Notes: a model not told the origin generated them from the letters alone. Positions 19,601 through 64,000 are shown, numbered from the stretch's first letter. The stretch is 64,000 nucleotides of DNA from Marsupella aquatica (GCA_973895155.1 OZ316896.1:15562576-15626575); one strand, 5' to 3'. A program made the numbers and translations.

Positions 19601-21760
19601 TCACAAACTTGGTTATGAATGGTCTAGGGGAAAATGTTCTCCCCGAATCCCTCGACTTTCAGATGTCTAAAGTCCTGTTGGAAGCTACTAACTTGGTGAT
19701 CTTAGATGAAGGGCACACTGCTCGTAATGATAATGCACAGATCACCAAGGCTCTTCATGCCATGAAAACGAAACGCAAAGTGGTTCTGTCAGGTACGTCT
19801 TCTGAGCTTCAGCCGGTCAAGTCTATCTGCTGGCTGGGGGAATATATCTTCCCATTCGGACCTTTTCCTGAATTTCAGGGTGTTCGTGATATCCGGCAGA
19901 GTAAGTATCCACGAGAGTATGCATTGTCGCATATATGAGTCGACTCTTGAAGACAACGTTAGGAGAGTGAGGGTTATGAATCACTTGTAGGGGGGTATAT
20001 CAGGATGTCCATCGTCTTCTTTGTTCGATCTTTCTGCATCAGTACAGTTTATTAAGAATTGCTGATGAAGCCTTTGAAACTTCAGAGATCGGAATCCTCT
20101 GAGGACTGTCGTTGACAGCAGGTTCACTTTGTACAGCCGTGCAGCAAGTTTTGAGTGTGATAGCAGTCCTTAGCAGACTGTGATAAGCTTTTGAAGGTTC
20201 ACATCGCCTTTTAGTCGCTCTGTTTTAGGCAAAATAGAAGTGGCGATACGGGGTCTGAGTGGGGACGTTCTGCAAACATTGCCTTTTGCATGAAAACTTC
20301 GTGCACAGAAAATCATCACTAAATGCTCTTCGGAGCATGCACAGAATGGTTGAATGTTAATTAGGACCCTGTTCTATTTGTACTAATGCCGCAATAGCAA
20401 TACGCTCTCTTTTTCTTTAGATTGAGTCATGCCTCCACATCTGCTGTGATTCATTTTTAAATCTTCTTGTTGTTTGAGACTTCTCTCCTGGCAAATTCAA
20501 TCCTCAGGCAACTGATCCCAGAGTTTTCCGTTCTCCAATATTTTCTGGTTGTTGACATTTGATTTGCACCTACTTCCAGGTACTTTGTTTCATAACACAT
20601 TCAAGGAGCTGTATACTGTCCTGAAGCTTTGCCGAGATGATTTTATGATATCTCATCCTCTGTATGGAAAGAGGATCGCCGAGCTTGCAGGCTTGGAAAG
20701 GCGTAGCAATGGCTTGACTAGTCCAAGGAGGAAGACGGACAAGAAGGAACTCATGCAGATAGAGCAGAAAATCTTCACAGATGAGATTGGTGAAAAACTG
20801 GAGCGGTACGTGAAGGATGATTCGGACTTTGACGAGATTCAACCAGTTGTGCAGAAGCTTCAGTCGCTGACCAAGTTTGTGGATTGGTATCCAGGGTTGA
20901 TATTGAAAAGCCTCCCTGGTCTTTATGAGTACTCTGTATACTTGAATCTGACAGATTTTCAGATGGACATAATCAATCGAATTCCTAGGAAGGTTAACTA
21001 TATGACCAGACAGTGCCACATCTTATCCGCTTGCATACATCCGTCTCTGGTGAGTGTACCGACTGAACCTTCCTCAGAGGTGAGGGTTGGACCTTTCTCA
21101 GACGTAAAGGTTGGAGCGTCTTCCATCGACAAGGAGGCTTACAAAGGTGTGAAGATCGCTTTCTTGCTGCGATTGATGACACTTTGCATGGGGAAGGAGA
21201 AGCTTCTGGTTTTTTGCGCCACTCTTGAACCATTAAAATACGTTGAGGAATTGTTCTGTAAGGTTTTTGAGTGGCAATTTGGCAAGCAAATATTGCGTCT
21301 GGATGGGACGATGCCAGACTTGGACAGGCAGAGAGTTATAGCGGAATTCAATGACGAGGGCTCCCCGAGCCAGGTTCTACTTGCGTCGACAAAAGCGTGT
21401 AAGGAGGGCATCACCCTGGTAGGAGCTTCCAGAGTAGTCGTTTTAGATTGTCCAGACAATCCATCAGTTGTCCGACAGGCTGTTAGTCGGGCATTTCGGA
21501 TAGGTCAGAAGAAGAAGGTCTATGTCTATAGACTGGTATCTAATAACCCCGAGGAGACGGCCATCTTCAGGAGGTCTGTAAACAAGGAACAACTCTCGCT
21601 GGTTTTGTCGGATCCAGCTTCCTCAATCGGAAGGCTGGGAATTTTCTTACAGAAGCAGGCTCCAGCAGAAGTAGAAGACCAGGTTCTAAAAAAGATGATC
21701 ACTGAGAGAGGTATGGCAAGGAACATCAATCAAGTCAGTAGATATAATGCCATAAGATGA
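16620..21760 (+). CDS. CLSY: SNF2-family chromatin remodeller of the DRD1/CLASSY (RdDM) subfamily, about 1198 aa
   Basis: Exons predicted from GT-AG sites with consistent phases: 16620-16719, 16828-17489, 17601-17744, 17865-18332, 18534-18797, 19015-19792, 20580-21760 (3597 nt). Motifs include HPHQKKGFKFL, Walker A HAPGTGKT, LDEGHTARN, spliced LSG|TLFHN, ASTKACKEGITLVGASRVVVLD and RQAVSRAFRIGQKKKVYVYRLV, plus the CxH...CxxCG motif typical of DRD1/CLSY. Exact orthology (CLSY versus DRD1) is not resolved. Confidence 0.9.
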
Positions 21761-43554: not shown

Positions 43555-44861
43555 CCTTTGCAAAATCTCCGTGTTTCGCTCACTACAGTTATTTAGCCGA
43601 ATCGGGGCTCGCGGTGTGGGAGAGGGAGAGAGAAGCAAGGTGGGCCTGAGTGTTTGCGAGCCGCTCAAGTAGTAATATTGAGTGAGTGAGGCGATCGAAT
43701 TTGATGGGATCCGCCGTACGAAGAAGAATGTGAGAGCGGAGATTGGAGTACTCGCGAGCTTGGAGAAGCTTGCTTGCTACACTTCGACCATGTACATCAT
43801 GCAACCTGGCGCAGTTAGTTGGAGGAATTGGCCGGAGCTGTGCAAACTTGGTGTGTGATGAGGTGAGAGATTTTTTATAGAAGTGATAGTAGTGATGAGT
43901 AAGTGAGGAGATGCTGGAGGGGAGGCGTCCGGCAGGATGTGTGTTGTCGGAGGGCCCATCTTCTGAGGCGGAACTCTGGCATTAGGGTGCGCATCATTCT
44001 AGCTCGCGAGCGAAACTGCAAGCTAAGTTGGCAGGTGGGCCACTTTCTCCGCGGTGTGTTGACTCCCTAGCTCGCAACCTAGGTGACGTTGTTGGCTACT
44101 GTCTCCTGGATCTACTGCCGGTGTCCCTCTCAGTTCTCGTGATCCTCTAGATTATGTTGGATCCGCCTTCAGGAAGCGAGCGTTAGTATTTCGTGCTGGG
44201 ATGCTGCTGCTTAGTGTGTGGTATTCGGACGACTTGTAGCTGAACTCGAGGCTGCACTCTCAGCTCATCCTTTTCTTAGTCCTGCCCCAAAAAGGATTTT
44301 TCATTGCGTCCGGCCGACTGTGCTTCCCATAGATTTTGCCACCGGTCGAATCTGGAACTGTAGAGGAGCCACCGAGAGTTTAGATAAATGCCTCAGAAAA
44401 ACTCCATTCGCTTTTGACGTACATAATCTCAACTGGCCGTTTAGTCTTTTCTTACAGAGGCCGTTGAGCGAACTTATTCTGCTGAGAAGTTAAGCTTCGT
44501 TGGTTTGACCGTGCTGGTACACCTCGAGCAGCCAATCACTGTCGTAGAGTTGCCATCAAACATCCCACATCGCGTGTTTTGCTCACGAGGTTTCAGCAGT
44601 GAGGATTCTCATACGATTCTGGAAGGAAAATATCTGTCCATGAGGACTGTCATCTCTCTCTTCAATTCCTGATATGTTACCGATGTCTTCACAAGACAAC
44701 TGCAGAAGAGCGGGAAGATCAATTATTTGAGTCCTGTGAAGGATTTTCTTCGACTTGACAGCGGTGGCTCGGCTTTTAGTGGTGAAAGCAATTAACAGTA
44801 CGTACGTATCGAAGCTCTGACCAGCACCGTGGATAGGCGACGATCTTAAATCGCCGACGAA

Positions 44862-47800
44862 ATGTCCAAGATGATGGCTCACAATCTCTCCGCACATGCC
44901 CTATCGTCCGCATTCAACCACCGCGCCTCTCCCTACCTTGGTCAAGATCAGATGATCTCCAGCCGCCACATTCCTATCTTGTCCGTCCCAGATATCCTCG
45001 ACGCTTTCCACCAAACCCACGCCTCGAGCACTGCAAATATGTGCAACAACTCTCTACTACGTTCAGCAAGCACGCACATTGAACCGTGGGAGCTGCCAGA
45101 GCTGAAGTGGCTAGATCCCGTAGAGAGCAACGTGGTAGGATCAAGTGCTATTCATGCCGAACCGGATAGGTTCGCTGTACAATCGTTGACAAGTTCAGTT
45201 CCCGAAAAGTTTGGCTTCGATGGAGGAGAAAGATGGCCATTCTCAGAGCTCTATGCAGTGGGCGATCAAGTAATGGCAAACAGTGCGGGTGCAGTGGACG
45301 ACAGCCTCGCCCAATTCTCCTTGCAGTCGATGGTAACAGCTTCCCCGGCGGTTAGCAGTGGATCTTCCATATTAACAAGAAAAACTCGTGGAATGTCGGG
45401 CTCAGCGACCAATATCTCGAGCTTTGCCAGGAGAGACTTCCCAAAGTCTGGCTTCCCGAAGTCCGCAAATGGCTCCACTCCTGTAGACTTGTCCAATGAC
45501 ACGTCTACAGTCACACCGACCTGCAGTAGCGGCTCGCACAAACGATCTGTGCCATCTGATCGACCGGATTCCGATCTCACTCAAGAGATTTCCAACCCTG
45601 GTCCGTCGGAATTCAAAGTGGCATCTGATAAGTTTCTTCCTGGAGATAGACTCAATTTTAAGAGAGAGTCCCCGTCGAGTACAATTTCATTCCCAACGGA
45701 AAAACGAAAGAGGCTTCAGGATGGTGGGGCTACACCTTGCAGTTCAGCAGGACCTAAGGTCCAGAAGGCAACCGTTGAGAAAGGCAGTCGAGCGGGTAAA
45801 GAGCAATCTGTGAGTCCCAATCGAGAAACCAACAAGAAATCGGCAGCCACAGCCAGCGCGGCTGCAGCTTCCGACCATGAAATTCATATTTGGACTGAGC
45901 GGGAGAGACGGAAGAAGATGAATGGCATGTTCACAACATTACATTCTTTGCTTCCTCATCTTACCTCAAAGGTTAATGTTCTTCTCCACTCTACCATCCA
46001 CTCTGTCTTGTGGTTTTCTGGGATGAGCTCAGCACTTATCCCAATTACTCTAGCTCGTTACTATGTGCCTTATTTTTCTGCAACGCCATATCTGCAGGGC
46101 ATATCTGCAAGTATGCAAACTCATTCTGACATGACGTCACTGGAACATAATTATCTCCTGACTGTTTGCGCTCCTTCATACTATAGTGGTTCGGATATTT
46201 TCCGCGGTCGTTCCTACTTTCTCTAAGACGTTGCTTAATTCATCCTCTAGGCTCTGATTTTACAGAGCCTTTCGTCGTTAACTAGTGGGCTAGGTGACCG
46301 GAAGGCCACCGGCATAAACATATAAGAAGTAAGAAGCACGCCAGGACGAGCAATTACTGTACTTGTCTGGCCTTCGGACATTGTAATGTGTCGTCATCAA
46401 CTCTAGATGGTCTGTTTAAAACAGTTCTCATTCCGCTTTTCGATTAGAACGAACACGACGATCAGATGATGTTGTGTATGGGGAACTTGGCACGTAGACC
46501 ACGGTCCGTAAAATGTCGATCTAGCTGCCTCGACCAGTGCTCGACCAACTATTACATGTTATATTTGGCATCTTAACTAAGGCACCGCCACGACATTCCT
46601 GGTGATTCTGTTCGAGTGATGAAACCTGTGCACGTTAAGTGCCTTCTGTGCTATTTGCGACATCGCGTGTGTTCGCGTGGAAGCCGGCAAAATTGTGGTA
46701 CAACTATTACGTAGTATTTCGGTCGAGCTCTCTATTTGGCAACGTAGAGAAGAACGAGTGATTTCAACCAAGTGCTCTATTAGCAACCTAGACGTAGTTC
46801 CTCGTAATTCCAAATATCCGAACTGACAAGCTAGCAGTTCATTGATTGCCACGGGTTCTGTGCTAGGTTTGTTTAATATTTATGCATGGAGGACGTCATT
46901 TCCATGCGGATAGAGCGACAGAAGGCAGCTAAAGTATGATTCTTGGGACAGACAGTACAAAGTATATATTGTTTCACCAGGAGAGATCCTGATTCTGCAC
47001 TCTGCACTCTGCACTCTGCACGTAATGCGTGGCTCCCAGTGATCAAAACGTCATCAGCATTGGCGATGACTTAGGAGCTCGGAGCTCAGCATCTACGCAA
47101 GCTTCGAAGTATTCATGTGGTTTTCTATTCCTTTCCATTGAACATTGGGATACGAGTTGACTAAGAAAGATGTTTGGAAATTTAGAGAACTGGGCACTGA
47201 GTCCGACGAAGATGCAATATTAACTACATTGGGCTTATATCTACCCCTTCCATATAAGTTCCGTAGCCTGACCAACCAGGGAGCTTCGCTTGTCTCACCA
47301 TCGAAAGCTAGAAGACATACCACTTCGCTTGAAATGCGTGTTGCCTCTTTCAAATCATATACCCAGTGATTGAAGACCTCTCTAGAGTCTATGATGGCAC
47401 CGTTTGTGTCGACGTTGTAGGTTCCAAATTATTCGAACCTCAGGAAATCTAGTAGATCCGATTACGTCCCTGCTCACCCTACCTCGATCATCAATCGATC
47501 AGTCTGCGTGACTCTTGTACGAGCTCGGGGTTGGATTTTAGTGCGAATCCAGTGACGGTTTTCACTTCGTGATCTCCTTCTATTTTCTCCCAACAAGGGA
47601 ACGATTCAACATAGTTGGATCGGCTGGATCTGATTAGTCACCACATTGAGATCATTGCATCTCGGTCTTCGACTGCTTAGCCCCTTTGCTCCATTTTGAG
47701 CTTCAGGGTTTAGGGTCAATTGGTTCAGGGGAATGTTCCAATTTCTAGGCTGTACGTCGGCGTTCCTCTCGAATGCTTCCAGTGCTGTCCCGATGCGATC

Positions 47801-49354
47801 CCTATTAATATTCCCCCATCTGAACGTACCTAGCACAATGTTGATCTAGGAGGGGACACTTAGTTGCTGCGGATAGTGACATATCGTTAGCAATGTGAGC
47901 ATCACGTGCATCTGCGAGGTCAATTCTGGAATTCTGGAGTTCTCGTTTCATTTTTAAGAGTTGGGCACTGACATTGACAACGTACTCTTTGCAGGCAGAT
48001 AAGTCAACCATCGTGGATGAAGCAATTAACTATATCCAGTCGCTGGAGGTAACAATGAAGGGAATGCTGAAGCGGAAGTGCGAGAGGTCCAATTCTTCCA
48101 GTACCTTGCTGCCGAGCACGCTGATTGAGACGGACAAAATCTCGCCAGCTAGCAGCAGCATGTGTGGATCTAAGGGGAAGGTATCGGTTGGATCGGCGGG
48201 TGATTCAAATAAGTTCCAAACGCTCTGCTCGCCAAATATAGTTCTCAACATGTGTGGATCGGATGCTTTCATCACTATATGCAGTCCTCGTGGGAGGTCT
48301 GGCTTGCTGTGCCGCGTCCTCTTCGTCATGGAGTCGCACAGGCTACAAGTTGTAAATGCCCACATTTCCACAACCGATGACACGAATCTGTTCATGCTCC
48401 ATGCTCAGGTTGGTACATCTTCCTTCTGCTGATTGCACTACGTCGTGATAAGCTTCCCTACTGATTTTCGTTTTAGAGGCCGTCTGGTACGTTCATGGAT
48501 AAAATATTCCAAATTGAACTTCGCGATGAGTCATTAAGACTGGATCCCTATAAATGCAAGCACCTGAAAGGCATACTTTCAAGCTTTCAAACTTTTCAAA
48601 CTTCAAGGGCCTATTCGCACAGAGCTTCACCTTAGATGGATTGATCGGTTGGAATGTACATGCAGCAATATTACTTAGTGTGTATGTAGTTTAGTCGGAC
48701 AGGGAAATTACAAAAAATGGGCCTCGGACTTTCGAAGGAGACTGCAAAACTACACGGAGCAAAGTTTCGAAGACTTTACTGAATAAGTATCTCCGGTCCG
48801 CGCGATTAAGTCTCTACGATCCACGTTCGATCGAGGTTGTACGTAAACTACTTACAAAACTGACTTCGGTCCAAAAGTTTGGGTTAAAAAGAGTAGATGT
48901 TATAGGTCAACTATATATTAACTACTCAGAATCTCGAAACAGAAGCATTCCATAGACGTCACAACTGAACCTGGGTAGTTTCGTAGTGTACAGGTAATTT
49001 TATAATCTAATGTATTACTCTGCCAGTCAATGTGTGAATCGTCGACGGTATGAAAATGTTGTTCGAAGAGGATAAATTGATTGTTCACCCTCGCGTCGAT
49101 CACAGTACATGCCTGAAATAGCATGTGGAAAGACATTTCACATTTGTATATATATCTGTCAGAAATAGAAATGAACAAGCTGTCGTCCCCTACTTTGGGA
49201 ACATTCCCATGTCTTAAACGAAGAGCGCTTCTGACAATCCGCCTGTGCTTGATGGTTTTCGCAGAGCGTGGATAGGAACCAATTTTGCAACCCCGACATG
49301 CTCAACGTCGCTTTGCAAGACTTGACGAGTTGCCTGGATACAAGCTGTCAATGA
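44862..49354 (+). CDS. ZOU: ZHOUPI/bHLH95-like bHLH transcription factor with a C-terminal ACT-like domain, about 537 aa
   Basis: Exons 44862-45971, 47995-48408 and 49265-49354 (GT-AG, phase 0). The spliced bHLH reads [34 protein letters not shown]|[18 protein letters not shown], matching the ZOU signature [15 protein letters not shown]...[12 protein letters not shown]. The C-terminal [23 protein letters not shown]...[23 protein letters not shown] matches the ZOU-family ACT-like region. The start codon and last exon are less certain. Confidence 0.88.
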
Positions 49355-51700: not shown

Positions 51701-51951
51701 TACTCCATCAATCATGAATTCTGGGGCAGAACAAGTATCTATTCGTTGGAAGACATCCAGAACCTTGCAGGATAAGCATTGACTCAATTGGGCGTATGAC
51801 CGAATAAATCAACAGTGTCTCTATAGACTCCATCATCAATCATGAATTCTGCGGCAGAACAAGTAACTATTCGATGGAAGACATCTAGAACTTTGCAGGA
51901 TAACCATTGACTCAATTGGGGCGTATGACCGAATAAACCAACAGTGTCTCC
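51701..51951. repeat. Tandem duplication, about 127-bp unit
   Basis: 'atcaatcatgaattctg.ggcagaacaagta.ctattcg.tggaagacatc.agaac.ttgcaggataa.cattgactcaattggg.gtatgaccgaataaa.caacagtgtctc' occurs twice. Confidence 0.85.
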
Positions 51952-52604: not shown

Positions 52605-53392
52605 GTCGATCATCTGTTTCAATAGAATTTCTGTGGATCGACGAAGGACGGGAAGTTACCGGTTGTAGACGTTTTCTTGGCCGTTGCAAATCAAACTTAG
52701 TTTATACCGATTGATAAAGAGCAGAACTGGTTGTAGACTTACTATATAACCCAGTGCAGAACTTGAGTCAGGGGTCTTTAATTCTAGTAGTCACCTCTGG
52801 AACAAATTCTTGGTAAGCCTACGTACCCCAGCATTGAACCATGTACGTTCACAAATTATCTTAGTTGATGATCTGTTTCAATAGAGCTTATGTGGATAAA
52901 AAAAGGACGGGAAGTTACGGTGGAAGACGTTTTTTTGGACTTGCAAATCAAACTTAGTTTATACCCATAGAGAATGAAAGAACCGGTTGTGGACTGAATA
53001 AATTATAAATCAGTGCCGAATTTGAGTCAGAGGCTTGTCATTTTAGTCAGGGGCTTGTCATTTTAGTAGTCTCCTCTGGAACAAATTCTTGGTAAGCTTT
53101 TACTCCAGCATTCAACCATGTACGTTCACAAACTATCTTATGATAATCTGTTTCAATAGAATTTTATATATGGGAGACCCAAAAGGACAGGAAGCTACAG
53201 TTCCCACTGGTTGTAGGCGTTTTTTTTTGGCCTTGCAAATTAATCCGGGTGCAAATCAAACTTATTTTATACCCATAAAGAATGAAGTGGACTTAATATA
53301 ACTCAGTGCAGAATTGGAGTTATGGGCTTATCATTTTAGTATTCTCTGGAACAAATTATTGGTAAACCTACCCCAGCATGGAACCATGTACC
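52605..53392. repeat. Tandem repeat, about 265-bp unit x3
   Basis: 'atctgtttcaataga...ggacgggaagttac...gcaaatcaaactta.tttatacc...ctctggaacaaatt.ttggtaa...aaccatgtac' begins at about 52612, 52871 and 53146. Confidence 0.85.
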
Positions 53393-55139
53393 TGCCTGCA
53401 CACATGATCGTATGACCAGGAGGGCAACAGTGGTCAATCTTCCTAATATAAAACTCTCAGGCATGCAAGTTGAGATCTTAGAAAAAATCAATCACATGAC
53501 CTGAAACCTGACTGGTTAGGTACTACTACGCACAAGTGACGTGAGGACTTGGGAATATTGACAGAGTGAGGGTACAACCGCAAGAAAGTTTGCTAAAATA
53601 TGATTCGAATAATCTGATATGATGGAGTGGACCTAGTTAGTTTAATTAAATCACCCAAGTGGAAGCTTTGATAAACACAAACTTTTGGGACGTTTGGGTT
53701 GATCCCTCGATAGACAGGTGAAACCTTGATGAACACAGCTGAGATGATATTTAAAGTTACTCTGACAGCATGTTTTACACTTCTACTCCTAAGATGACAT
53801 GTAAACATGGCATGGGCTCGTTAAATATTCTGTCCATGTAAACTACCTCTAGTGAATCATGAACTCCATTCACTAGTAAAAGGAGTTTGGTTCCCTTGGT
53901 TGCATGACTACCGTTTATACCAGGCCCTTGAGTGGTCACGATAGACTGAACAATGTATATTCCTGTTTTTGATAATACTGTCTACTAGCTGGGGTCATTT
54001 TTGTACCTCATCACAGTCCCAAATCTTCACATTGTAAGGTTTCGGGAGTATCATGGCATTCTAAGTTCCTGGCTCAGAATTATTGCGAGCTGTTAGTGTT
54101 GCCCCGGAGTGTTGCTTGAACAATGGACTTTGAATCTTTGAGGGTGGACGAAGAGACGAAACTTACAGACTTTTTCTCGAAGCATTACAGTTCAAAGGAT
54201 TGATTCGTTCGATGAGAAGTATGAATGATGCAGAAGCCAATTCAACAAAATGGCCGCGCGCGCAAACACGTACGTGTGATCATCTATGACTGCTGCTGCC
54301 ACTGTCTACAGTATCATTCAGTAGTTGCTACCGACTTCGGTCTGGAGTGGTCTGCTTCATACCAGACCGTCGAGCTCGCTACACTCCACAACTTGCTGCC
54401 CTCGGTCCCTTCAGTGCCAGTATGATCAGAATCGTCATCACTCGAGGATTGAAGGAGACCGCAGGACTGTAATCTGCTGCTCAGTTTGTTCAAGACAGTC
54501 CTCAGTCGGCTGAAATGGACAGTACTGTAGTAACTTCATTCATTGAGGCCATGGCAGGCCAGGCCAGGCCAGGCTGCACAGTGTCATGCCTTTCAAGGGA
54601 GAGGGAAAGTGGATCTAACTTGAATGTCCAGTGTGATCGTTTTACTTTCAGTAAACAAAATTACAAAGTTTCTGTTCGAGATTGTGCAGAGTGACTGATC
54701 GGGTGGTCTTCCCCATGCTCACTCATGAGTAAGTTGTCTGTGGCCCAAAATTTGTCCTCAGCGACGCACTTCTCTGTCCCTGCCTACTGCCTCTTATTCT
54801 TTCTAGATGTGCGGTGTTTCCCACTGGATGGACCAGAAATGACGAGAAAAATATCCTCTGACGTAGGCAAACCTTGCACTAGGTAGGGTATCAAACAGTT
54901 TTTATTGTTTATTTGGTCTTCAGAGGATTCATTCATATATAATTCATTCGAGTGAAGGAAATAAATCACCAAGTTCACTCCTCACCCCAATCATCACACT
55001 TTTTCTGATCTGGTCAGGGCTCGTCTTCTTTCCAGTTTGGGCATAGGCAGGGGCCTGGCTTTCGACTAGCCCATTGTGGTCGGTTCCAGGGTCGGTTTGG
55101 GGGGCCTGGCTTTCGACTAGCACATTGTGGGCTCCCTTT

Positions 55140-55880
55140 TGTATAAGCTCTTTTTCTTCACTGTGTCCACACGCCTCAGGCTTGGTCTTCCCCACCCTTG
55201 CCTGTTGGGCCAGCCCACGTGTGTCTGCAGAGGCCATTGGATGGGTCCAGAGCAGTATTCACATTCTTCGATGTGGTCATGGTAGTGAGAGGACCACTAA
55301 CCACAATGACATTTGCAATGTGGTCACTGCCATTGCAAGATTTAATTGATGCAGCTGATGAAGATTCAAAGAATGCTACGATTCATTTTGAAAAACAGAG
55401 AGCTATCGAGCAAGTTCGACAACAAGTGACTCAGGATACCATGTGTCCATAGAGCAGAGTCATGTTTTTCCCTCCTCGCGACGGTGTTGCTGATTGCCGC
55501 CATGCTGACCTCGTCTTTTCCGGTGCTGGAGTTCGGACCCTCAGGGATGTGGTTGTTGTGGACCCTACTAGTGGGGCCAATGTTGCCCAGGATGTTACCA
55601 CGGCAGCTCATGTCCCTGGTCACGCAGCTAGCTCTAGGCTGCACAATTAAAAGAGGAAGCCTATGCTATTTGGTACCCTGACGATCTCTTCTACCCCTTT
55701 GCCGTCGGTTGAGGTTTTTGGGGTGGTTCACCCAACCTTTGACTGCTTCTTACAATCTTGTGCGATTGCTTATGTTGCATGAAGACCTTATCCACCAGTG
55801 TCTGTCATCATAGCCTTTTTTTACCTATAGAGAGTGTCAGTTGCACTCTAGCGGGCTCAGACATTCACTATTTTTCCCAG
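55140..55880 (+). mobile_element. Degraded 3' portion of an RLE-type (CRE/NeSL/R2-group-like) non-LTR retrotransposon
   Basis: Frame-hopping translation gives [10 protein letters not shown]...CVC...[18 protein letters not shown] (Zn knuckle and RH-like motif), [17 protein letters not shown]...RTLRDVVVVDPT (PD-D-like), QLKEEAY (K..Y), LFYPFAV.EVFG and YL*RVSVAL*RAQ (QRxSVALQR). This is the conserved restriction-like endonuclease C-terminus. Confidence 0.7.
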
Positions 55881-55882
55881 GG

Positions 55883-56598
55883 TGTCGTGACATATAGTAT
55901 CGTAGCCATAGTGTATCGAAAACATACAAGTCACCGGCAAGGCATATGTGCAAGCTGCTAGCAACCAACATGCATAGAAAAAGTCCAATCACATTCACAA
56001 GTGCCAAGAAAAAGCAAATGAAGTGGTATGTACGTAGTGGAGGTGTAAACCTATGTATTATAAAAGGCGTGATAGAAACAAGTGTACTGAAATCGAATCG
56101 AAAACCGACGGGATGTCAAGATCGGCCGGGAGCATCTAACGAATCATTGTGTGAATCCCGTGTACGAAACCGACGAGCACTGTCTGAGCTCTGTCGACAG
56201 CGATTCAAGAAGAACTGAAAACCCACAAAGAAAAACATGCCCTAAATAAACAAAGTCCTAGCGTCACACTAACAAGCGCGTTTGCTTCAAGATCGCCTGG
56301 CATTTGCTATAAGAACATGTCGCTAACTCAAGTCGTACACTAGCCCTAACTACATACCTAGCGGGCATGCGAGGGACATGCCGATGTGCATAAGAGGCAC
56401 TGTCCCTCGGCATGATAGCTATCGTGACATATAGTATCGTAGCCATAGTGTATCAAAAACATACAAGTCACCGACAAGGCATATGTGCAAGCTGCTAGCA
56501 ACCAACATGCATAGAAAAAGTCCAATTAATCACATTCACAAGTGCCAAGAAAAAGCAAATGAAGTGGTATGTACGTAGTGGAGGTGTAAACCTCTATA
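55883..56598 (-). repeat. Putative 3' LTR containing a direct repeat of about 170 bp at both ends
   Basis: It follows the PPT (GGGGGGGGA on the minus strand), starts TA (probably a decayed TG) and ends CA. 55885-56052 is nearly identical to 56422-56593. The partner LTR is not visible, so the boundaries are inferred. Confidence 0.65.
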
Positions 56599-56639
56599 TC
56601 CCCCCCCAGACCACAGCCAAAAGGAGGGCTGAAGAAAAT

Positions 56640-57910
56640 TCAGGTAGCACGTGGAGCACAGGAAGGGCAAAACCATAACCCTTCTGGCACCTGGGTAAGT
56701 TCAGGCCGAAGGCAGAAAAGATGGTACCCTCCATTGCAATTGTCACACAGCAGCATCTGGTCAACATCATCAATTCGCAAACACACTTTGCAAGGGTAGT
56801 CCACAGGTGGAATCCAGGTAGAAGTCACAATGGTGGGATCCAGGTTAGGCAGATGACAAGGGGCGCAATTCTTGGCATTGTCAGCAATTGTGCGCCCATC
56901 TGCCCCTTGTAACTCTAGCACTCCAGACGGTCGAATAGCTTTAACCCTGAGAATAGTACGACTGGTAGAGGTGTCCAGGGTGTCATTAGCTTGCCGCTGC
57001 AAGTACACAAAATCTCCCACATCAAACTTCCTGACCTTGGGCTGAAAAGTGCCCCCTCGTGTGTGTGCATAACGCAGTGTGTCCCTGTGTTGTGCAATGG
57101 CCAAATTCTCCATGGCCATGGGCATAACCCTCCTGAATAGGGCAGCCCTCTCAGAGATCACATCAGACCAAGTCATAGTTGAATCCAAGTCCACCACCTG
57201 AAGCATGTGAGCAACAATAGCAGAAGGTGGAACTGGGTGACGACCAAACAACAAGAAGTAGGGAGAAAAGTTAGACAATAATGCATGTCTGGACATCCTA
57301 TACCCCATGGCAATGTAGGGTAAGGCCAGGTCCCAATTCTCCTTGTTTTTGGTGAGGCAGATCTTCCGGAGATCCTTCTTGCATGTCTGAACCATGCGCT
57401 CTGCCAAGCCATCTGCTTGTGGGTGATCTCGTGATGTTCGGCGATGATCAATGAGGGCCTGATCAAGCAGCTCCTAGAACTCTCCTCTGAACTCTGATTC
57501 TTGGTCAGTGAGACATTCTGCACAAGCTCCAAAGCGACTGAGAACTTGTTGCAAGAATGCCTGGCTGGTGCTATGGGAGGTCTTATTGTGCAATGCCACA
57601 AGTTCTATCCACTTGGAGAAATGCTCTATCATGATCATGATGTAGAGATTACCCCGAGATGTGAGAGGTAATTCTCCAGCCAAATCACATGACCAACGAT
57701 AAAACATGCCCTGAATAGAGAGTGGATGAAGTGTGGGTTGCCGAGATGTGAAAGAAGTCCTTACCCTATCACACTGCTCACACCGGGCAATAACATCTTG
57801 AACCTGGCCATGCATGCCTCTCCAATGATAATGGGGGACCAAGAGGCTATAAGTCCTCTTAACACCAAAATGACCAAGCTCAGAATGTACCTTACGGATA
57901 AGGCCAACCC
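56640..57910 (-). pseudogene. Retrotransposon integrase (HHCC plus DDE) fused to a C-terminal PHD finger
   Basis: HSELGHFG...CEQC zinc-binding motif, and WSCDLAG / LTDQESEF / GLAERMV catalytic triad. One in-frame TAG at 57474. The C-terminus CKVC...LLCDNCNGGYHLFCL...PEGLWFCPSC is a C4HC3 PHD finger. Confidence 0.92.
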
Positions 57911-57912
57911 TC

Positions 57913-59568
57913 TCATGAATGGGTCACTTCCCTGTCTGGCAGGCAGCGCACAAGATGATCTCCCTTCCACAAGTAGCGCTTGGACCTTTGCTGAATTCGG
58001 TCTCTCTGGGCAGCGTAACATGGGTGGGGTACTCCCCATGCTGCAGAAATTTCAGTGTCGTTGTCCTCCCATATGTCCACCACAGGTTGGTCAACAATGT
58101 AGCATGGCAGCAAAGCAAGATAGGTAGATGCATGAAATGTAGGCAGGATAGAAACCTGGTCAAAATCCTGCCGTGCATCTGAGGAATCATCAGAGGTAAT
58201 CAAAGGGCTACGGGACATAGTGTCAGCATTCTGATGTGTCACACCAGGCCTATGAATTACCTCAAAGTCATACTCCTGGAGTATGAGCACCCAACGAGCA
58301 AGCTTGCCAGTAAGCTTGTCATTGGTCATCAACCACTTCAAGGGCTGGTGGTTGGTGTAGAGGACAAGCCTGGTCCCATAGAGGTAGGGCCTGTAATGTA
58401 TGACAGCCCACACAACAGCAAGGCATTCACCCTCATACGAAGAATAATGACTCTCTGCCTGATTGTTGCTCCTGGATGCATAGGCAATGACGTACTCTTT
58501 ACCTTCCTCATCATGTTGGCCCAGAATGGCACCAATCCTAAGGGCACTCCAATTTGTGTGTAGCACAAAGACCTTGCTGAAATCAGGTCTTCTCAACACC
58601 GGGTATTCTGAGAGCTTCTCCTTCAAAGTGGCAAATGCTGCCTCAGCATCTGTACTCCATGTCCAAGTCACATTCTTTTTCAACAAAGCATACAATGGGT
58701 GTGCAATGGTGCTGAAATCTTTGATGTAGATCCGATAGTAATTGCACAACCCAATAAAACTCCTCAAAGTGTGAACATCGGTAGGAGTGGGCATTTCCAA
58801 GATGGATACCACCTTGGCCCAGTGAGCCATGGTTCCATTTGGAAGAATGCGGTGCCCAAGGTATACTACTGATCTGACAGCAAATTCACACTTCTTGGGG
58901 TGTATCTTTAGGTTCACCTTCTTAAGCCTCATGAATAGCTCCTCAAGGTCAAGTAGATGTCGGTCAAATCCTTTGCTGTGGACCAACACATCATCAATGT
59001 AGCATTTCAGAAACTCAGCACCTTGAAGAACCTGGTCCATGACTCTTTGAAAGAATATGGGCGCATTCTTCAAGCCAAATGGCATCACCAACCACTCCCA
59101 TAGTTGGTTACTGCCATGGAAAGCTATTTTCTTGCGGTCCTTTGCAAGCAGCAAAATCTGGTTAAAGCCTTGCCTTAGATCCACAAGAGTGAAGATGTTT
59201 GAGTCTCCAATGCTGTCAAATAGCTCCTCTAGCCGTGGCATGGGGTACCTGTCCTGGGGTGTGACCAGGTTCAGTGGCCTGTAGTCCCCACACATGCGCT
59301 TCTCTGTCCATAATCCACTGGAATCCTTCTTTGCTGGCATCACTGTAGCTGCTGAAAAATGTGATGTAGATGGCTGAATAAGACCAGCTTCATAGAGCTC
59401 TTGGCACCTCTCTTCCACCAGCTGCCACTCATGCTTACTCAAATGGTGCCTCCGACTGAAGATAGGTGTTTCATCAGCCAACTCAATGGAGAACTGCACG
59501 GTCTTGCACTTACCCAAGTCCTTCATAGAGAAAGCAAACACGTTCTCATGCAAGTGACCAGAAGCCAA
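57913..59568 (-). pseudogene. Retrotransposon reverse transcriptase and RNase H (Gypsy type)
   Basis: RMCGDYRPLN, DLRQGFNQI, MPFGLKNAP, YIDDVLVHS, FIGLCNYYR, LHTNWS (TD->TN), YEGECLAVVWA, YTNHQPL (TDH->TNH), NADTMSR. Frameshifts occur near 58020-58050. Confidence 0.95.
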
Positions 59569-60510
59569 GTGAGAGCATTAAGATCCATTACCCTGTCAAG
59601 TAAAGCATTCCTGGCCAGCTTGGTGATTTTGGTGTGGCATGTAGTACTGGGTTGGAAGCCCATAGCCCGTTCTCTCTCCTCAGGACTAGGTTCATCCCTT
59701 GTACCGGTAGAATGTCGGTAAACCAGGCCAGGACCATCACCCTGAAAAGCATGTGCACCTGGAAAGGACACAAATGTAGGCCAAGCAGCATGGGGCTATC
59801 CAATGGTATTGGCTGGATACCAAGGTGCTGGCTCTCGCCATGTAACTGGTTGGCAAGAACTGTCAGGATCCAAAATCTGGTCCACTATGAGGTTAGTGTC
59901 CCTGGATGTGTGGTGAAGAGCTAACTCCAACAAGGAAGGTGGTGCAAGGTTAGTCCAAAAGTTACGAAGACGATGTGCATAAGAACCACAGTGTACTGCA
60001 TCAATGAGAAGGGGTGGTCCCAAGTAGTGTTGGACCACACTGAAATCCTCTTTGACCTGTGGACGCTGGTCAAACTGAGATGGAGTATTCTCAATGATAT
60101 AACCAACAACATGATAAAGGGATTGAGCCCAAGTGAGAATCTGAACCAATGCTGTGAAAAGGCCAGAACGAGAATCATGCAGTCCAGCACCGTGACCAAC
60201 AGCTGAAAACCCTTGGCATTCCCAACCAGCTATGATCAAATCAAGGGAGCCAAGAAGGGTTAAGTGCCGGTGCTGGACAAGCTGGATATCTGGAGGAAAG
60301 AAAGAAAATGCAAACTTCCATGCACTGTGCGGAAACTGCTGGGGAAATTGCTCTAAAAATTCCAGCAGGCGGGATTCAACCACTTGCCTTGCACCTGGAT
60401 CAATGTCCACGTAGATGTACTGCTTCACCACCATGCCAGACTATAGGAGAGCTTCCAGGCCTGTAGAAATGCCACCAAAAAGCTCAAGCAATGTAAGGCC
60501 ATCCGGAGGA
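59545..60510 (-). pseudogene. DNMT3-like C5 cytosine DNA methyltransferase domain inside the retrotransposon polyprotein
   Basis: Motifs in canonical order: I LLELFGGI (FxGxG-type SAM binding), II YVDID, III DIQ, IV DLIIAGWECQGFS (catalytic Cys), then GLHDSRSGLF, VI YIIENT, VIII IDAVHCGSYAHRLRNFWTNL (compare DNMT3 AHRARYFWGNL), IX ERERAMGFQPSTT, X RNALLDRVMD. It is in frame with the upstream protease across TAG stops at 60441 and 59796. Confidence 0.88.
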
Positions 60511-60920
60511 GGAGTCCATGTAACTGGTGCACTCAAGATTGGGGCTATTGGTTGTCCATTGTGCTGCTCAAGGTCCTCAAATTTGCGCAATGCAGCCACC
60601 AAAGGTCCATGGGCTGCTTGGAGCCGTTGTACCACCTCTGGTTGATGATCCACGTTGCTGGAAAGTGTTGCTATACGTGCAGCAGCATGTGCAGTAGCCA
60701 CCTCATCATCATCCTCTTCAATCCAATCCTACAATGGGTGGTTGACATAGGTAGCTGTGTGCACTACTTTCAACACACAGTGGTGAGCCATAGGTGTATG
60801 GGCACCATGCAAATCAAGTGGAATGTAGCCCAAGTGTGAGCCATCCGTATGCCAATCAACTCTGTAGTATGCATGCTCATGCCAGTTGTCAATGGTAAAA
60901 CCTGGTGGGAACAAAGCCTC

Positions 60921-61230
60921 CTAGCCAATGAGCACATCATACGTAGTGGCATTGGTAACCAAACATCTGACTGGGAAATGCAATTCCTGATCTGTACCTC
61001 CATTAAAAGTGAGAGTGAGTAAAGTAGAACTCTCACCCAGCACATCCTCCACAGTGCCACTAGCAGTCCGAATGTGCCACCTGGATTGCTGTAAATGATC
61101 AGTCAACAGTCCCATCTTCTTGGCAAACTGAATGCCCAATATCACTGGTTGAGCACCTGTGTCTAGCATGACCACCTGAGGAGTGTGACCCTCCAACTTG
61201 ACCACTGAATTCCTGTTGTCAACAATGGCA
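60921..61230 (-). pseudogene. Retroviral-type aspartic protease
   Basis: VVMLDTGAQPVILG catalytic DTG, IRTASG flap and YDVLIG terminal motif. Confidence 0.88.
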
Positions 61231-62309
61231 ATGGTGGTGGAAACTGAAGTCCTATCACTAGGCACCACTCTCGGCAAATGATGAGGTACCTTGTGAAGGG
61301 AGTTAGTATCCACGGTCTTTCCACTCAACAATATAGCCAGGAAAGATGGAGCAGCATGACCAGAATCAAGTGTAGCTCTGGTCACACAATCAGCAGCAAT
61401 CGGTACTGGGGCAGCCAAACCAGTGGAAAAATGTAATGGAGAAGAAGAAGGTCCAGTATGTACATGAGATTGGACCTCCAAAACCGGTGTCACAGGGGCT
61501 GATGAAGAATGCAGTGAACCCTCTAGCGCTCTGATGACCGCTCTAGCATCCAGTTGTAAATCATGGCAACTGAAAAGTGGAGTTGTAAGAATCCTTTGTG
61601 CCATACTGGAGGTGAAATGCTCAAGCAGCTCAGGAGAAACAACTCCTTGTGAAATGTCAGCAGCACCTGGTGGTGGAATGGATGTAGCTGCAGCTCCCTC
61701 CCCCCTCGCCAACAAGGTGGGCTCTTCAGCAAGTGTGAGTGGCTGAATAGATTGGGGCATGATAGCCCGAGCTCCCCTGGCTCTAGTCATAGGACCGGCA
61801 GCAAGACCATCAGCCTGTACAATGCGGCGTGTGGGAGCAATACGAGAGGCAGCACTGGCCTGCTGGTAAGCAAAATAGGAAGGGCAGAATGAATCTGAAA
61901 ATTATGTTGTAAGGCCAGGCTGTGGAGCAAAGGACAACACACACTCACCCATATGAGCATCAAATGGCAAGCCATAGAAAGAGCCGGGTAGAGGTGCTGA
62001 ACTGTCAGTGGTGCCGGGGCCAGGGATGGGTTGCACGTGACCAGCCGGTTGAGAAGGACCAACAGAGGCAGTTGACTTGCCTTTGATGTTGGCAAGTTGG
62101 GCACGTAGGGACTCAACCTCATGAGTCAGAGACTGGAGTTGAGTTGCCTGTGCGTTGTGAGTCTCCTTCTGAGCTGGTTGCTTCTGTTGCTGCTTGGGCG
62201 GTTTGTTGGCACTGGATGCTTTGCCACTGGAAGGAGGAGCAGTTGATGCAGTAGGAACCCTCCTAGTTGGTGGGGGAGTGGAAGCAGGAGCATGAGGAGG
62301 GGCTTGCTG

Positions 62310-63474
62310 TCATAGCTGCTTCCTCTCTGGGAATTTGGCAAAACAAACTGCCTCCAAGTGACCCACTTTCCCACAAAAATCACAAGACAGGTCCTCAGCA
62401 ACAATATCACATTCATTAGCCTTGTGATTGGGGTTACCACAGTAGTTGCAAGATGGCAGCATGAAAGCAGCATGGGCTGGCTTGGTCTTGGAACCATACT
62501 GTGGCACACGGGAAGGGGTGGCCAGTGTAGGGGCAGCAGATTGGTACCTGGATCGCGGTGGACGTGCAATACTGGCCTCATAATGTGCATGGGCCAACTC
62601 AAGTTTCTGAGCAGTGTCATAGACATTGAGCAGGGTGTAGCTGTCTCCAAACTCTGAGAATACTTGCTGCAATACTTGCGAATGGAGAGCTGGTGTGCCC
62701 TCCAATGCGCGAAGATAGCGATGAGCAGCTTCCAGGTCAGTGATGCTCTGGGTGTCCTCCTTCAGCTTGAGAAGCCGGTGATACATCATCTTCAATGTTT
62801 CATCGCGCTGCCGCACAAAGGTGGCCAACTGCATGATTTTGTCAGCACTCTTGATTGGGAATTCCAATTTAAGAACCTGGAAAAACTCAGCCACTGGATC
62901 AGCAAAGGCAGGGAAATCAATGGTGGGATAAATGCCTGATGTAGCCTGTGCCAAGATAATGGGAGTAACTGGCGCCGTGGTAGGAACTGGAGTAGGAGGG
63001 GAAGTGGCAGGAGCAGTAGCATGGGTTGCAATGGTATTCTATAAGGCCAATTGTGAGGCTGCCGCAATTGCACTGGCATAGGCAGGGTTAGGCAATTGCA
63101 TGACAGCAAGCAGCCGTTGAGAGTGCTACTCATACACATCCAAAGCCTCATGGTGCACATACCTAGCTAGCTGCTTAAATGCAAATGCATTTGTGAAATT
63201 GCTGCCGTACTTCAACTCCAATTCGTAAATGATAGTGTAAAAAATGGATTTGAACTCACGCAAAGAAACAGTGCCTGGCCGCCCACTGAAGCGCTCAATG
63301 TGGCCAGATGAGTGACTGGCATCCACGCTGTATGTCGGTGAAGCTGGAACAATCACTGATGCAGAAGGAGTAAAGGGCAAAGAAGCGATAGTAGGCTTTG
63401 GGGTAGTGGTGAAGCGACCGCCAAATGTAGCAGAAGGGTTGCGTGGTGTGGGTGCTGCTGATGTCTGCTGACAT
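62310..63474 (-). pseudogene. Retrotransposon Gag with two CCHC zinc knuckles
   Basis: ERFSG...REF major-homology-like N-terminal region and RQRDETLKMMYHRL. Knuckles are CNYCGNPNHKANEC and CDFCGKVGHLEAVC. In-frame TAGs at 63126 and 63039. The start is uncertain. Confidence 0.85.
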
Positions 63475-64000
63475 CGTCAAAATTGCCGAGACTCCAATGA
63501 AATGGGCACCAACGGTCGTGGATCACTCCGTAAGTGGTACCTGGGCGTTGGTGGCGATGAGCTGCTACCTCCCGGCTTGTCTGTTGACATGTTGTGTGAC
63601 AATACCCAAAATGTGTAAAGACTGAGAAAACCCATCACCATCAAAAAACCGTCGGGGAAAAAGGACCCTTAAAACCTCAAATTGTGTTCCCGTCGCGCTT
63701 GCCTATGTGTATACATAGGCGATGTGGGATTGCCGTCCCATGTGTATACCCCGGGCCCGCAGCCCGATGCAGATGACCGACGGCGGTAGCAAAGAAATCC
63801 GCAAAGAAATGGCCCAAAAAACAACAACAAAATGTGAAAGGGGGGCCCTTAAGTGTATACGTCGGCCCCGGCGTGGACCCAGAAACTGACGGAAGGCGCG
63901 CGTCGACGGGAAAGAAAAATAAGGTGGGGACCGGCAACCGAGCGAGTGTGTATACACACTTGAGGCACCGTGCGCTATGCTGCAGACGAATAAAAGCGAA

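Follow-up and report, generated by a model that had tools for sequence, protein, structure and literature searches.

The stretch of Marsupella aquatica DNA studied here, 64,000 nucleotides (nt) long (GCA_973895155.1 OZ316896.1:15562576-15626575) and called the window below, carries on its minus strand a decayed Ty3/gypsy retrotransposon of the long terminal repeat (LTR) class. Domain searches confirm the organization gag, protease, C5 cytosine methyltransferase, reverse transcriptase (RT), RNase H, integrase and PHD finger. The Pfam matches follow one another as protease, PF00145, RT, RNase H, H2C2, rve and PHD finger, and the protease–RT–RNase H–integrase order with a DDE integrase is that of the Ty3/gypsy group. 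The element is a dead copy of a multi-copy family, and we consider it rather probable that the conserved DNMT3-like methyltransferase of this family methylates newly made element DNA, and that this DNA likely goes through a circle opened by the integrase at an internal site.

The layout of the window copy, read along the minus strand, is as follows. A single frame runs from the gag ATG at 63590 to 59523 and takes in gag, protease and methyltransferase, with nine premature stops inside. The original prediction had recognized the shared frame but had begun it at 61790 and counted four stops, which are those of the nine that fall in 61790-59523. Gag with its zinc knuckles (62310..63590) has stops at 63479, 63128, 63041 and 62312; the zf-CCHC match, 19.8 bits, is under its cut-off of 20.8, and the segment is homologous to the N-terminus of the related protein P0004 (68–76%). 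The aspartic protease, with an LDTGA motif, lies at 60850..61250 (PF13975, 28.6 bits; PF13650, 26.6 bits) in the frame of both gag and the methyltransferase. The latter occupies 59550..60504, with stops at 60443 and 59798, the catalytic Cys at 60218, the ENT motif at 60092 and the RxR motif at 59972/59966. At 59548..59551, a deletion private to this copy has removed about 125 codons of the methyltransferase–RT linker and shifted the frame: residues 296 to 421 of P0003 are unmatched in the window, and loose ends of contigs in runs X1, X2 and X3 carry extra sequence. With nine stops and a deletion that shifts RT out of frame, the copy is dead. RT shares the frame of the methyltransferase in the intact relatives P0003 and P0025 but not in the window copy.

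RT, with a YIDD motif, and RNase H extend over 58204..59520 (PF00078, 98 bits; PF17917, 120 bits). The DDE integrase (56841..57923; PF17921, 54 bits; PF00665, 40 bits) has an H2C2 finger and its D-D-E core, read as CDLAG, TDQESEF and GLAERM, with one stop inside and a frameshift upstream. At the integrase C-terminus lies a PHD finger (56658..56792; PF00628, 45 bits), which the original prediction had missed. The solved PHD structures closest to it are those of WSTF, CHD4, KDM5, BAZ2B and ATXR5, and several PHD fingers of the WSTF, CHD4, KDM5 and BAZ2B type read the unmodified H3 tail. Where chromoviruses such as Tcn1 and Chlamyvir have a chromodomain, Pfam gives PHD rather than chromo for the window element. 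A search for a tyrosine recombinase in the 22 other-frame open reading frames (ORFs) of this element and among 15 long relatives was negative; an integrase is present.

The methyltransferase motifs are where they had been predicted, on the minus strand: LLELFGG (I), YVDID (II), IIAGWECQGFS (IV), YIIENT (VI), AHRLRNFWTN (VIII) and PEERERAMGF (IX), with the codon of the catalytic Cys of motif IV at 60218-60216. The PF00145 search proposed as a check gave a score of 27.1 bits (cut-off 22; E 3.5e-06), with only about 55 residues covered. Among 46 matches to solved structures, the best 29 are all DNMT3A, DNMT3B or DNMT3C (best E 1.4e-06), followed more weakly by HhaI (E 0.05) and the 357-residue plant-type entry 4onq (E 0.34). 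An AlphaFold model of a natural relative, P0059, built from a 23-row alignment, reached a predicted local distance difference test score of 79.5, and in a Foldseek search with this model every listed match was DNMT3A or DNMT3B (best E 3.9e-17; template modelling score 0.82 by target). Motifs and predicted fold together confirm a DNMT3-like, unpermuted domain within the Pol ORF, with its catalytic residues kept. The GWEC form of motif IV, which had been called unusual, does keep the catalytic Cys, but it is the commonest form in the lineage (20/39 rows in one alignment and 63/140 proteins in another set), and GWPC and GWEC both occur among the relatives.

Could the domain have been kept for binding, or for methylating RNA, rather than for DNA methylation? 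The Pro-to-Glu change in motif IV and the short Pfam match are compatible with such a role, as is the finding, in the part of the literature we draw on, that the Klebsormidium domain was inactive in yeast (PMC5890265). Conservation points the other way. In 39 protein rows at 35–75% identity, the Cys is present in 37/37 covered rows, the Glu in 39/39, and the two motif VIII Arg residues in 38/38 and 37/38, making all four near-invariant across the lineage. The closest folds are DNMT3 and not DNMT2, and the coexistence of GWPC with GWEC also speaks against it. We regard a binding or RNA role as quite unlikely.

The prediction that other copies would carry the domain is borne out by 20 long proteins, 152 near-length proteins (120 of them listed) and 39 metagenome loci; copies were counted through public contigs. 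The methyltransferase is part of a Gypsy-type polyprotein, as predicted: in P0004 and P0025, gag, protease and methyltransferase (with RT in some) form single stop-free ORFs, and in P0003, methyltransferase, RT and RNase H share one ORF. The closest named relative among the matches listed is from Calypogeia fissa, at 75%. The ratio of nonsynonymous to synonymous substitution rates (dN/dS), also proposed as a check, is 0.10 between families for the methyltransferase, both for the window copy against L001 (299 codons) and for L001 against L002 (280 codons), with Cys and ENx kept; the domain is under purifying selection between families. The dN/dS set comprised 22 of the 39 loci, leaving out 14 that are likely re-assemblies of one site, two that are internally deleted and one of other domain order. 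Among these decayed loci, dN/dS is 0.47 for the methyltransferase (210 pairs) vs 0.43 for RT (171 pairs). The Cys is kept in 20/22 decayed loci, each motif VIII arginine in only 12/22; both arginines have CpG codons, and most of the changes fit deamination. The broken state of the window copy would speak for a host fragment captured once by that copy, but the many domain-bearing loci and proteins, the dN/dS of 0.1 and the occurrence of the domain from chlorophytes to liverworts rule this candidate out, and we give it next to no credence.

In run X3, flank-identical contigs have depths of 17–20 and element contigs with few differences 1200–1700, a contrast that, read loosely since depth is not copy number, suggests tens of young copies. 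A search of representative proteins returned 583 matches at 1e-30 and 12944 at 1e-3, totals that are not a clean family size given that the profile held some RNase H columns. Of the 150 proteins listed, 140 were new, and every one of these has the domain, mostly in a form placed after RNase H, a bias of the profile. That search gave no recognizable host DNMT3, a search of viral contigs gave only distant phage enzymes (21–33% identity), and an Atlas search gave only generic PF00145 clusters.

The original prediction had held that the domain is not a standard part of land-plant Gypsy elements; it missed an old lineage spread across green plants. An RT search, with 120 of 3223 matches listed, returned Klebsormidium nitens, Closterium, Marchantia polymorpha, Calypogeia, Haematococcus and Tetraselmis, and methyltransferase searches added Sphagnum, Tetradesmus and Scenedesmus. 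Two domain orders are found. The order protease–methyltransferase–RT–RNase H–integrase, with the PHD finger in some, is that of the window element, K. nitens protein P0283, Closterium and Marchantia, and the methyltransferase also precedes RT in Tetraselmis. The order RT–RNase H–methyltransferase–integrase–PHD is that of Tetradesmus and Scenedesmus. In an RT tree of 54 of the 120 rows, a quick tree with no bootstrap, all 29 methyltransferase-bearing rows fall in one 36-row clade (Shimodaira–Hasegawa-like approximate likelihood ratio test, SH-aLRT, 98), inside which the after-RNase-H rows form a subclade of their own (SH-aLRT 100). The suggested kinship with Klebsormidium elements stands, as three K. 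nitens rows, including P0283 on a long branch, lie in the clade. A FastTree of 120 rows broadly concurs. Outgroups were those that the search returned; the Tcn1, Chlamyvir, Phygy and Selgy references are outside these trees. In the methyltransferase tree, the after-RNase-H group (0.99) is nested among before-RT forms, with the root on distant phage enzymes, the sole outgroup; host DNMT3, DRM, CMT and MET1 are not among its rows. The simplest reading of the trees is that the domain was captured once and moved once within Pol.

Some further observations concern proteins of this and neighboring clades. Many clade proteins within P0182-P0226 are RT–RNase H–integrase–PHD polyproteins that start 30–170 residues before RT, which may reflect a second ORF, a programmed frameshift after the methyltransferase, or loss of the methyltransferase. 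The Marchantia gene models P0227 and P0242 (Mp_2g26090 and MARPO_0091s0058) are protease–methyltransferase–RT–RNase H polyproteins of this lineage, and with them the number of host methyltransferase genes may be overestimated. Different cargo is found in Gypsy polyproteins that fall outside the clade (P0269, P0278, P0280 and P0284): PF05869 (adenine methylase), NUDIX and dUTPase.

The ends of the element are not those of the ordinary LTR element that had been predicted. Instead of two full terminal LTRs, there is an A repeat at the 5′ end and B-A-B at the 3′ end, that is, split direct repeats of the kind known from tyrosine recombinase (YR) elements. In the window copy, a direct repeat of 176 nt lies at the element's 3′ end, its copies 537–541 nt apart. 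Along the minus strand, a polypurine tract, a G run (56600..56607), immediately precedes B1, both in the window and in each of the 16 loci listed. B1 (56420..56599), the 5′ part of U3 in our model, differs from B2 by five substitutions and one 4-nt indel in 176 nt. An internal attachment-like junction between B1 and A2 (56416..56421) has the family form CA-NN-TG and reads TA-GC-TA in this copy; the TG of the family sequence comes from contigs. A2 (56060..56417) would be the rest of U3, R and U5, and B2 (55883..56058) ends in CA at 55883, the 3′ end of the element. The twin of A2, A1, is the 5′ end of the element and was seen in eight loci. At the window edge only an incomplete 5′ untranslated region remains (63591..64000, minus strand), in which neither A nor B occurs; A1 and the primer site fall outside the window, and in relatives A1 is separated from gag by at least about 1.1 kb.

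Five loci that retain both ends have the structure A1-body-B1-A2-B2. In four of four runs, contigs of the window family show varied flanks that begin exactly at 55883 (6–9 contigs a run) and at 56415-56417 (7–16 contigs a run), and at 56060 they pass into one fixed sequence. Because the contigs branch at these three places, the window family has the A1-body-B1-A2-B2 structure as well. Relatives start with TG (TC in L009) and end in CA. The target duplication of 4 bp is exact in five of six cases (L009, L013, L022, L024 and, in L025, a solo A-B unit) and matches in three of four bases in L021, while cross-pairs of flanks match in 0/30. The solo unit, at L025:18014-18494, is with its own duplication the counterpart of a solo LTR. 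The B1/A2 spacer is 2 nt in 12/12 junctions, and its letters vary. At the A2/B2 joint, A2 is shorter than A1 by 0, 0, 1 and 7 nt, as expected of joined ends. The A1/A2 and B1/B2 identities in four elements are 83/84, 87/88, 84/87 and 86/84%, and the A pair and the B pair having diverged equally, both repeats were therefore renewed at insertion.

A permuted insertion, A-B-A-body-B, was looked for and rejected: none occurs among loci with a 5′ end, and L033 has only about 35 nt of B and no matching duplication. These 35 nt or so, at L033:690-760, are a B end standing right before A1, resembling the predicted B-A-body intermediate; the arrangement could alternatively be a recombination product.

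Priming also differs from the ordinary case. A primer site follows the 5′ repeat and the polypurine tract precedes the 3′ repeat, but the site is self-complementary and not of the tRNA type: TGG is missing after A1 in all four elements whose A1 is complete. The bases at the A1 end and just beyond it are complementary to a stretch 30–36 nt downstream of a TATA box in A. The pairing involves 12–16 bases in six of eight loci, a length matched by 0/50 control windows for each. For the window family, whose contigs run on from the end of A into one fixed sequence, the partner was taken from contig loose ends; the predicted self-primer, at 56203..56218 on the minus strand, pairs in 15/16 bases with the sequence after A1, which 0/50 controls reach. 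The duplex of the window family differs in its letters from those of the other loci, and cross-family pairing extends to only 8 bases. This preservation of pairing despite changed letters is the strongest sign of the self-priming that we propose. Pairing and position fit self-priming of the Tf1 type, with the RNA start and cleavage predicted from sequence. Self-priming is known for the Tf1/Sushi group and has been predicted for plant Tcn1 elements, according to the part of that study considered here (PMC6317226).

We propose the following route. Transcription would begin about 30 nt past the TATA box within A1, and the first 10–15 bases of the RNA would anneal immediately beyond A1, there priming the minus strand in the manner of Tf1. 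A primer site after A and a G run before B would make B+A the functional LTR, and with the plus strand started from the G run the product would be a linear cDNA with two ordinary LTRs, each B+A (B-A-body-B-A). The ends of this cDNA would lack TG and CA, which sit inside U3, and would hence be joined into a two-LTR circle. The DDE integrase would then cut one CA-NN-TG junction inside an LTR with a 2-nt stagger and insert the DNA, giving A-body-B-A-B. End joining followed by a cut at the junction would, we infer, yield exactly this order, along with ends processed as in retroviruses and a duplicated target. Either a one-LTR circle or recombination between B1 and B2 would yield A-body-B, and copies with a single terminal B do exist (L005, L008 and L029/L033). 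There is precedent for the cutting step, in that the integrase of foamy virus is described as cleaving two-LTR circle junctions (PMC1180852).

The split repeats might instead be rebuilt in the manner of PAT and Ngaro elements, the RNA extending into B2 and template switches closing the circle, with no joining of ends. The A1...B1-A2-B2 layout is that of YR elements, as described in the portion of the review used here (PMC6681497), and the A2/B2 joints are flush in two of four cases. Nevertheless, the primer site after A1 and the G run before B1 sit exactly where an ordinary B+A LTR needs them, copying primed from the primer-binding site would leave B2 uncopied, and the element has a DDE integrase and 4-bp duplications where a tyrosine recombinase was sought in vain. 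We judge such a route improbable and favor joined cDNA ends opened by the integrase.

On the joined and still extrachromosomal DNA, the methyltransferase, freed by the protease or tethered to Pol, would act most likely at CG, so that new copies would arrive pre-marked, and the PHD finger would steer integration by reading the histone H3 tail. Methylation of the cDNA seems the likeliest role because of the position of the enzyme in Pol and because SymbioDIRS enzymes methylate CG in yeast, as reported for SymbioDIRS-Dnmt3 in the sections of de Mendoza et al. consulted (PMC5890265). A competing account has the enzyme act on chromosomal DNA, silencing integrated copies or their neighbors in trans and thus damping the family or aiding the host, with no marking of cDNA. 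It is in keeping with the union, in a single polyprotein, of a DNMT3 domain with an H3-reading PHD, an echo of the DNMT3/ADD pairing, and with heavy C-to-T decay (47 of the 54 A1–A2 differences of L013 are transitions). The option is also raised in the discussion of one paper (PMC5890265). Set against this, the position in Pol gives the enzyme first access to the cDNA, selection favors most directly whatever benefits the copy that encodes it, and the decay is explained by host methyltransferases. We therefore find action on chromosomal targets unlikely and prefer methylation of the new cDNA.

CpG depletion was considered as a sign of self-methylation and dropped. The observed/expected ratio in the coding region is 0.10–0.44, and an unrelated element in L008, a single control, has 0.51 against 0.37 for the family. 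In A2 (56060-56417) and in the 5′ untranslated region (63591-64000), CpG is kept, at 1.1–1.2.

Several points weigh against the interpretation favored here. The coding-region depletion is non-specific, the unrelated L008 element being low too. Motif IV mostly has Glu where known enzymes carry Pro, and the Klebsormidium enzyme gave no methylation in yeast, a result that its authors, in the passages at hand, deem inconclusive (PMC5890265). The pairing at the A1 end is weak in L016 (10 bases; 4/50 controls) and L018 (9 bases; 2/50 controls), the ragged A2/B2 joint is based on four old, AT-rich copies, and the 5′ end and target duplication of the window copy itself lie beyond the window edge. For seven of the 36 rows of the RT clade, the annotated protein lacks a methyltransferase; six of them begin at or shortly before RT and one ends after RNase H, and because of these starts and stops loss cannot be told from gene calling. 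Activity, RNA, particle and circle are all predicted here from sequence. Taken at its widest, the proposal is of an old green-plant Gypsy lineage with attachment sites in mid-U3 and an obligatory two-LTR circle, methylated and placed by a DNMT3-like enzyme and a PHD finger and still amplifying in bryophytes; for this whole we would claim somewhat less than an even chance.

Elsewhere in the window, on the plus strand, an intron-split SNF2 helicase gene lies at 16728-21760 (SNF2-rel_dom, 74 bits; Helicase_C, 66 bits), which we take to resemble the DRD1/CLASSY group of plant methylation remodelers, and a plant bHLH gene with an ACT-like domain at 44850-48432. These two genes identify the host as a land plant, and only the Calypogeia match points further, to a bryophyte. 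Just outside the element, at 55134-55770, is a repeated sequence with raised contig depth, and an ORF at 55453-55650 (plus strand) reads ...RHADLVF...DVVVVDP..., presumably resembling the restriction-type endonuclease of a non-LTR element. There are also a two-copy repeat with 128-nt spacing (51706-51950) and a three-copy repeat with spacing of about 270 nt (52605-53408).

The role of retrotransposon-borne cytosine methyltransferases has been an open question since 2018, and members in Marchantia and Sphagnum bring it into genetically tractable plants. Since chlorophytes and liverworts share an RT clade, the Klebsormidium case now looks like part of an old lineage whose methyltransferase domain changed its place in Pol. 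The end structure would imply that an integrase of the retroviral type inserts a circle, which is usually deemed a dead end, and software that seeks two terminal LTRs would miss or mis-bound such elements.

The nearest known system is KnitGypsy-Dnmt3 of Klebsormidium nitens, for which the accessible parts of the report describe a Pol-borne Dnmt3 domain with a Ka/Ks of less than 0.2, together with repeats of the DIRS-like kind (de Mendoza et al. 2018, PMC5890265). The window element shares with it a Dnmt3-related domain in the Pol ORF, purifying selection and, by the legend of Fig. 4 there, a DIRS-like repeat layout combined with Gypsy domains. The K. nitens protein P0283, with a PF00145 match, has the domain order of the window element; we do not equate it with the published KnitGypsy elements. 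The text describes an acquisition in the K. nitens lineage (PMC5890265), whereas the clade found here runs through liverworts, mosses, Closterium and chlorophytes and includes a second domain order. A PHD finger, target duplication, self-priming and the internal junction were not met in the KnitGypsy-Dnmt3 text (PMC5890265; Fig. 4c and the main supplement aside). The name KnitGypsy is confined to one paper in the literature searched. Later mentions of Gypsy-DNMT3, in the portions covered, speak of streptophytes and leave land plants unnamed (PMC12344493; bioRxiv 2026.05.21.726589), and a 2019 opinion piece, in the part covered, holds that land plants such as tracheophytes lack transposon methylases (PMC6338049). 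Chlamydomonas elements commonly have PHD fingers, and the parts covered of four reports held nothing further of relevance (PMC8557442, PMC11982613, bioRxiv 2022.06.16.496473 and bioRxiv 2026.09.17.752431). The literature searched, which did not extend to most subscription papers, Repbase and several supplements, holds no description of bryophyte or chlorophyte members or of the end mechanism.

Other systems match in part. PAT-like and Ngaro YR retrotransposons, including SymbioDIRS-Dnmt3, are portrayed in the excerpts used as having A1...B1-A2-B2 repeats, a methyltransferase in some cases and a proposed circular intermediate (PMC6681497, PMC7192593). They carry a tyrosine recombinase, in contrast to the protease, H2C2/DDE integrase, TG...CA ends and 4-bp duplications found here. 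The Tf1/Sushi and plant Tcn1 chromoviruses likewise have no tRNA site, the primer being predicted to come from the 5′ end of the RNA itself (Neumann et al. 2019, PMC6317226, from the part considered), but with ordinary LTRs and a chromodomain instead of split repeats, a PHD finger and a methyltransferase; the words methyltransferase, PHD and Marchantia are absent from the main text of that paper. In foamy virus and HIV, a DDE integrase is reported to cut an internal palindromic two-LTR junction and thereby free processed ends (PMC1180852, PMC4372172, PMC1905944). For these viruses this is a side route, with a junction made of the true ends, whereas here the junction would be stored inside U3 and the circle would be obligatory. 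The catalytic domains of human DNMT3A and DNMT3B have the same DNMT3 fold and unpermuted motif order, with about 20% identity to DNMT3A. DAM-LTR/EpiLTR elements are also retrotransposons with methyltransferases and chromatin readers, and the preprint, as far as seen, states that the EpiLTR enzymes are sister to DNMT4 and distinct from streptophyte Gypsy-DNMT3 (bioRxiv 10.64898/2026.05.21.726589). Because the lineage spans Klebsormidium, Closterium, Marchantia, Calypogeia, Sphagnum and chlorophytes, the window element is a land-plant member of the published Gypsy-DNMT3 kind. That kind is already known, if barely studied; the range of the lineage and the end mechanism are the new parts.

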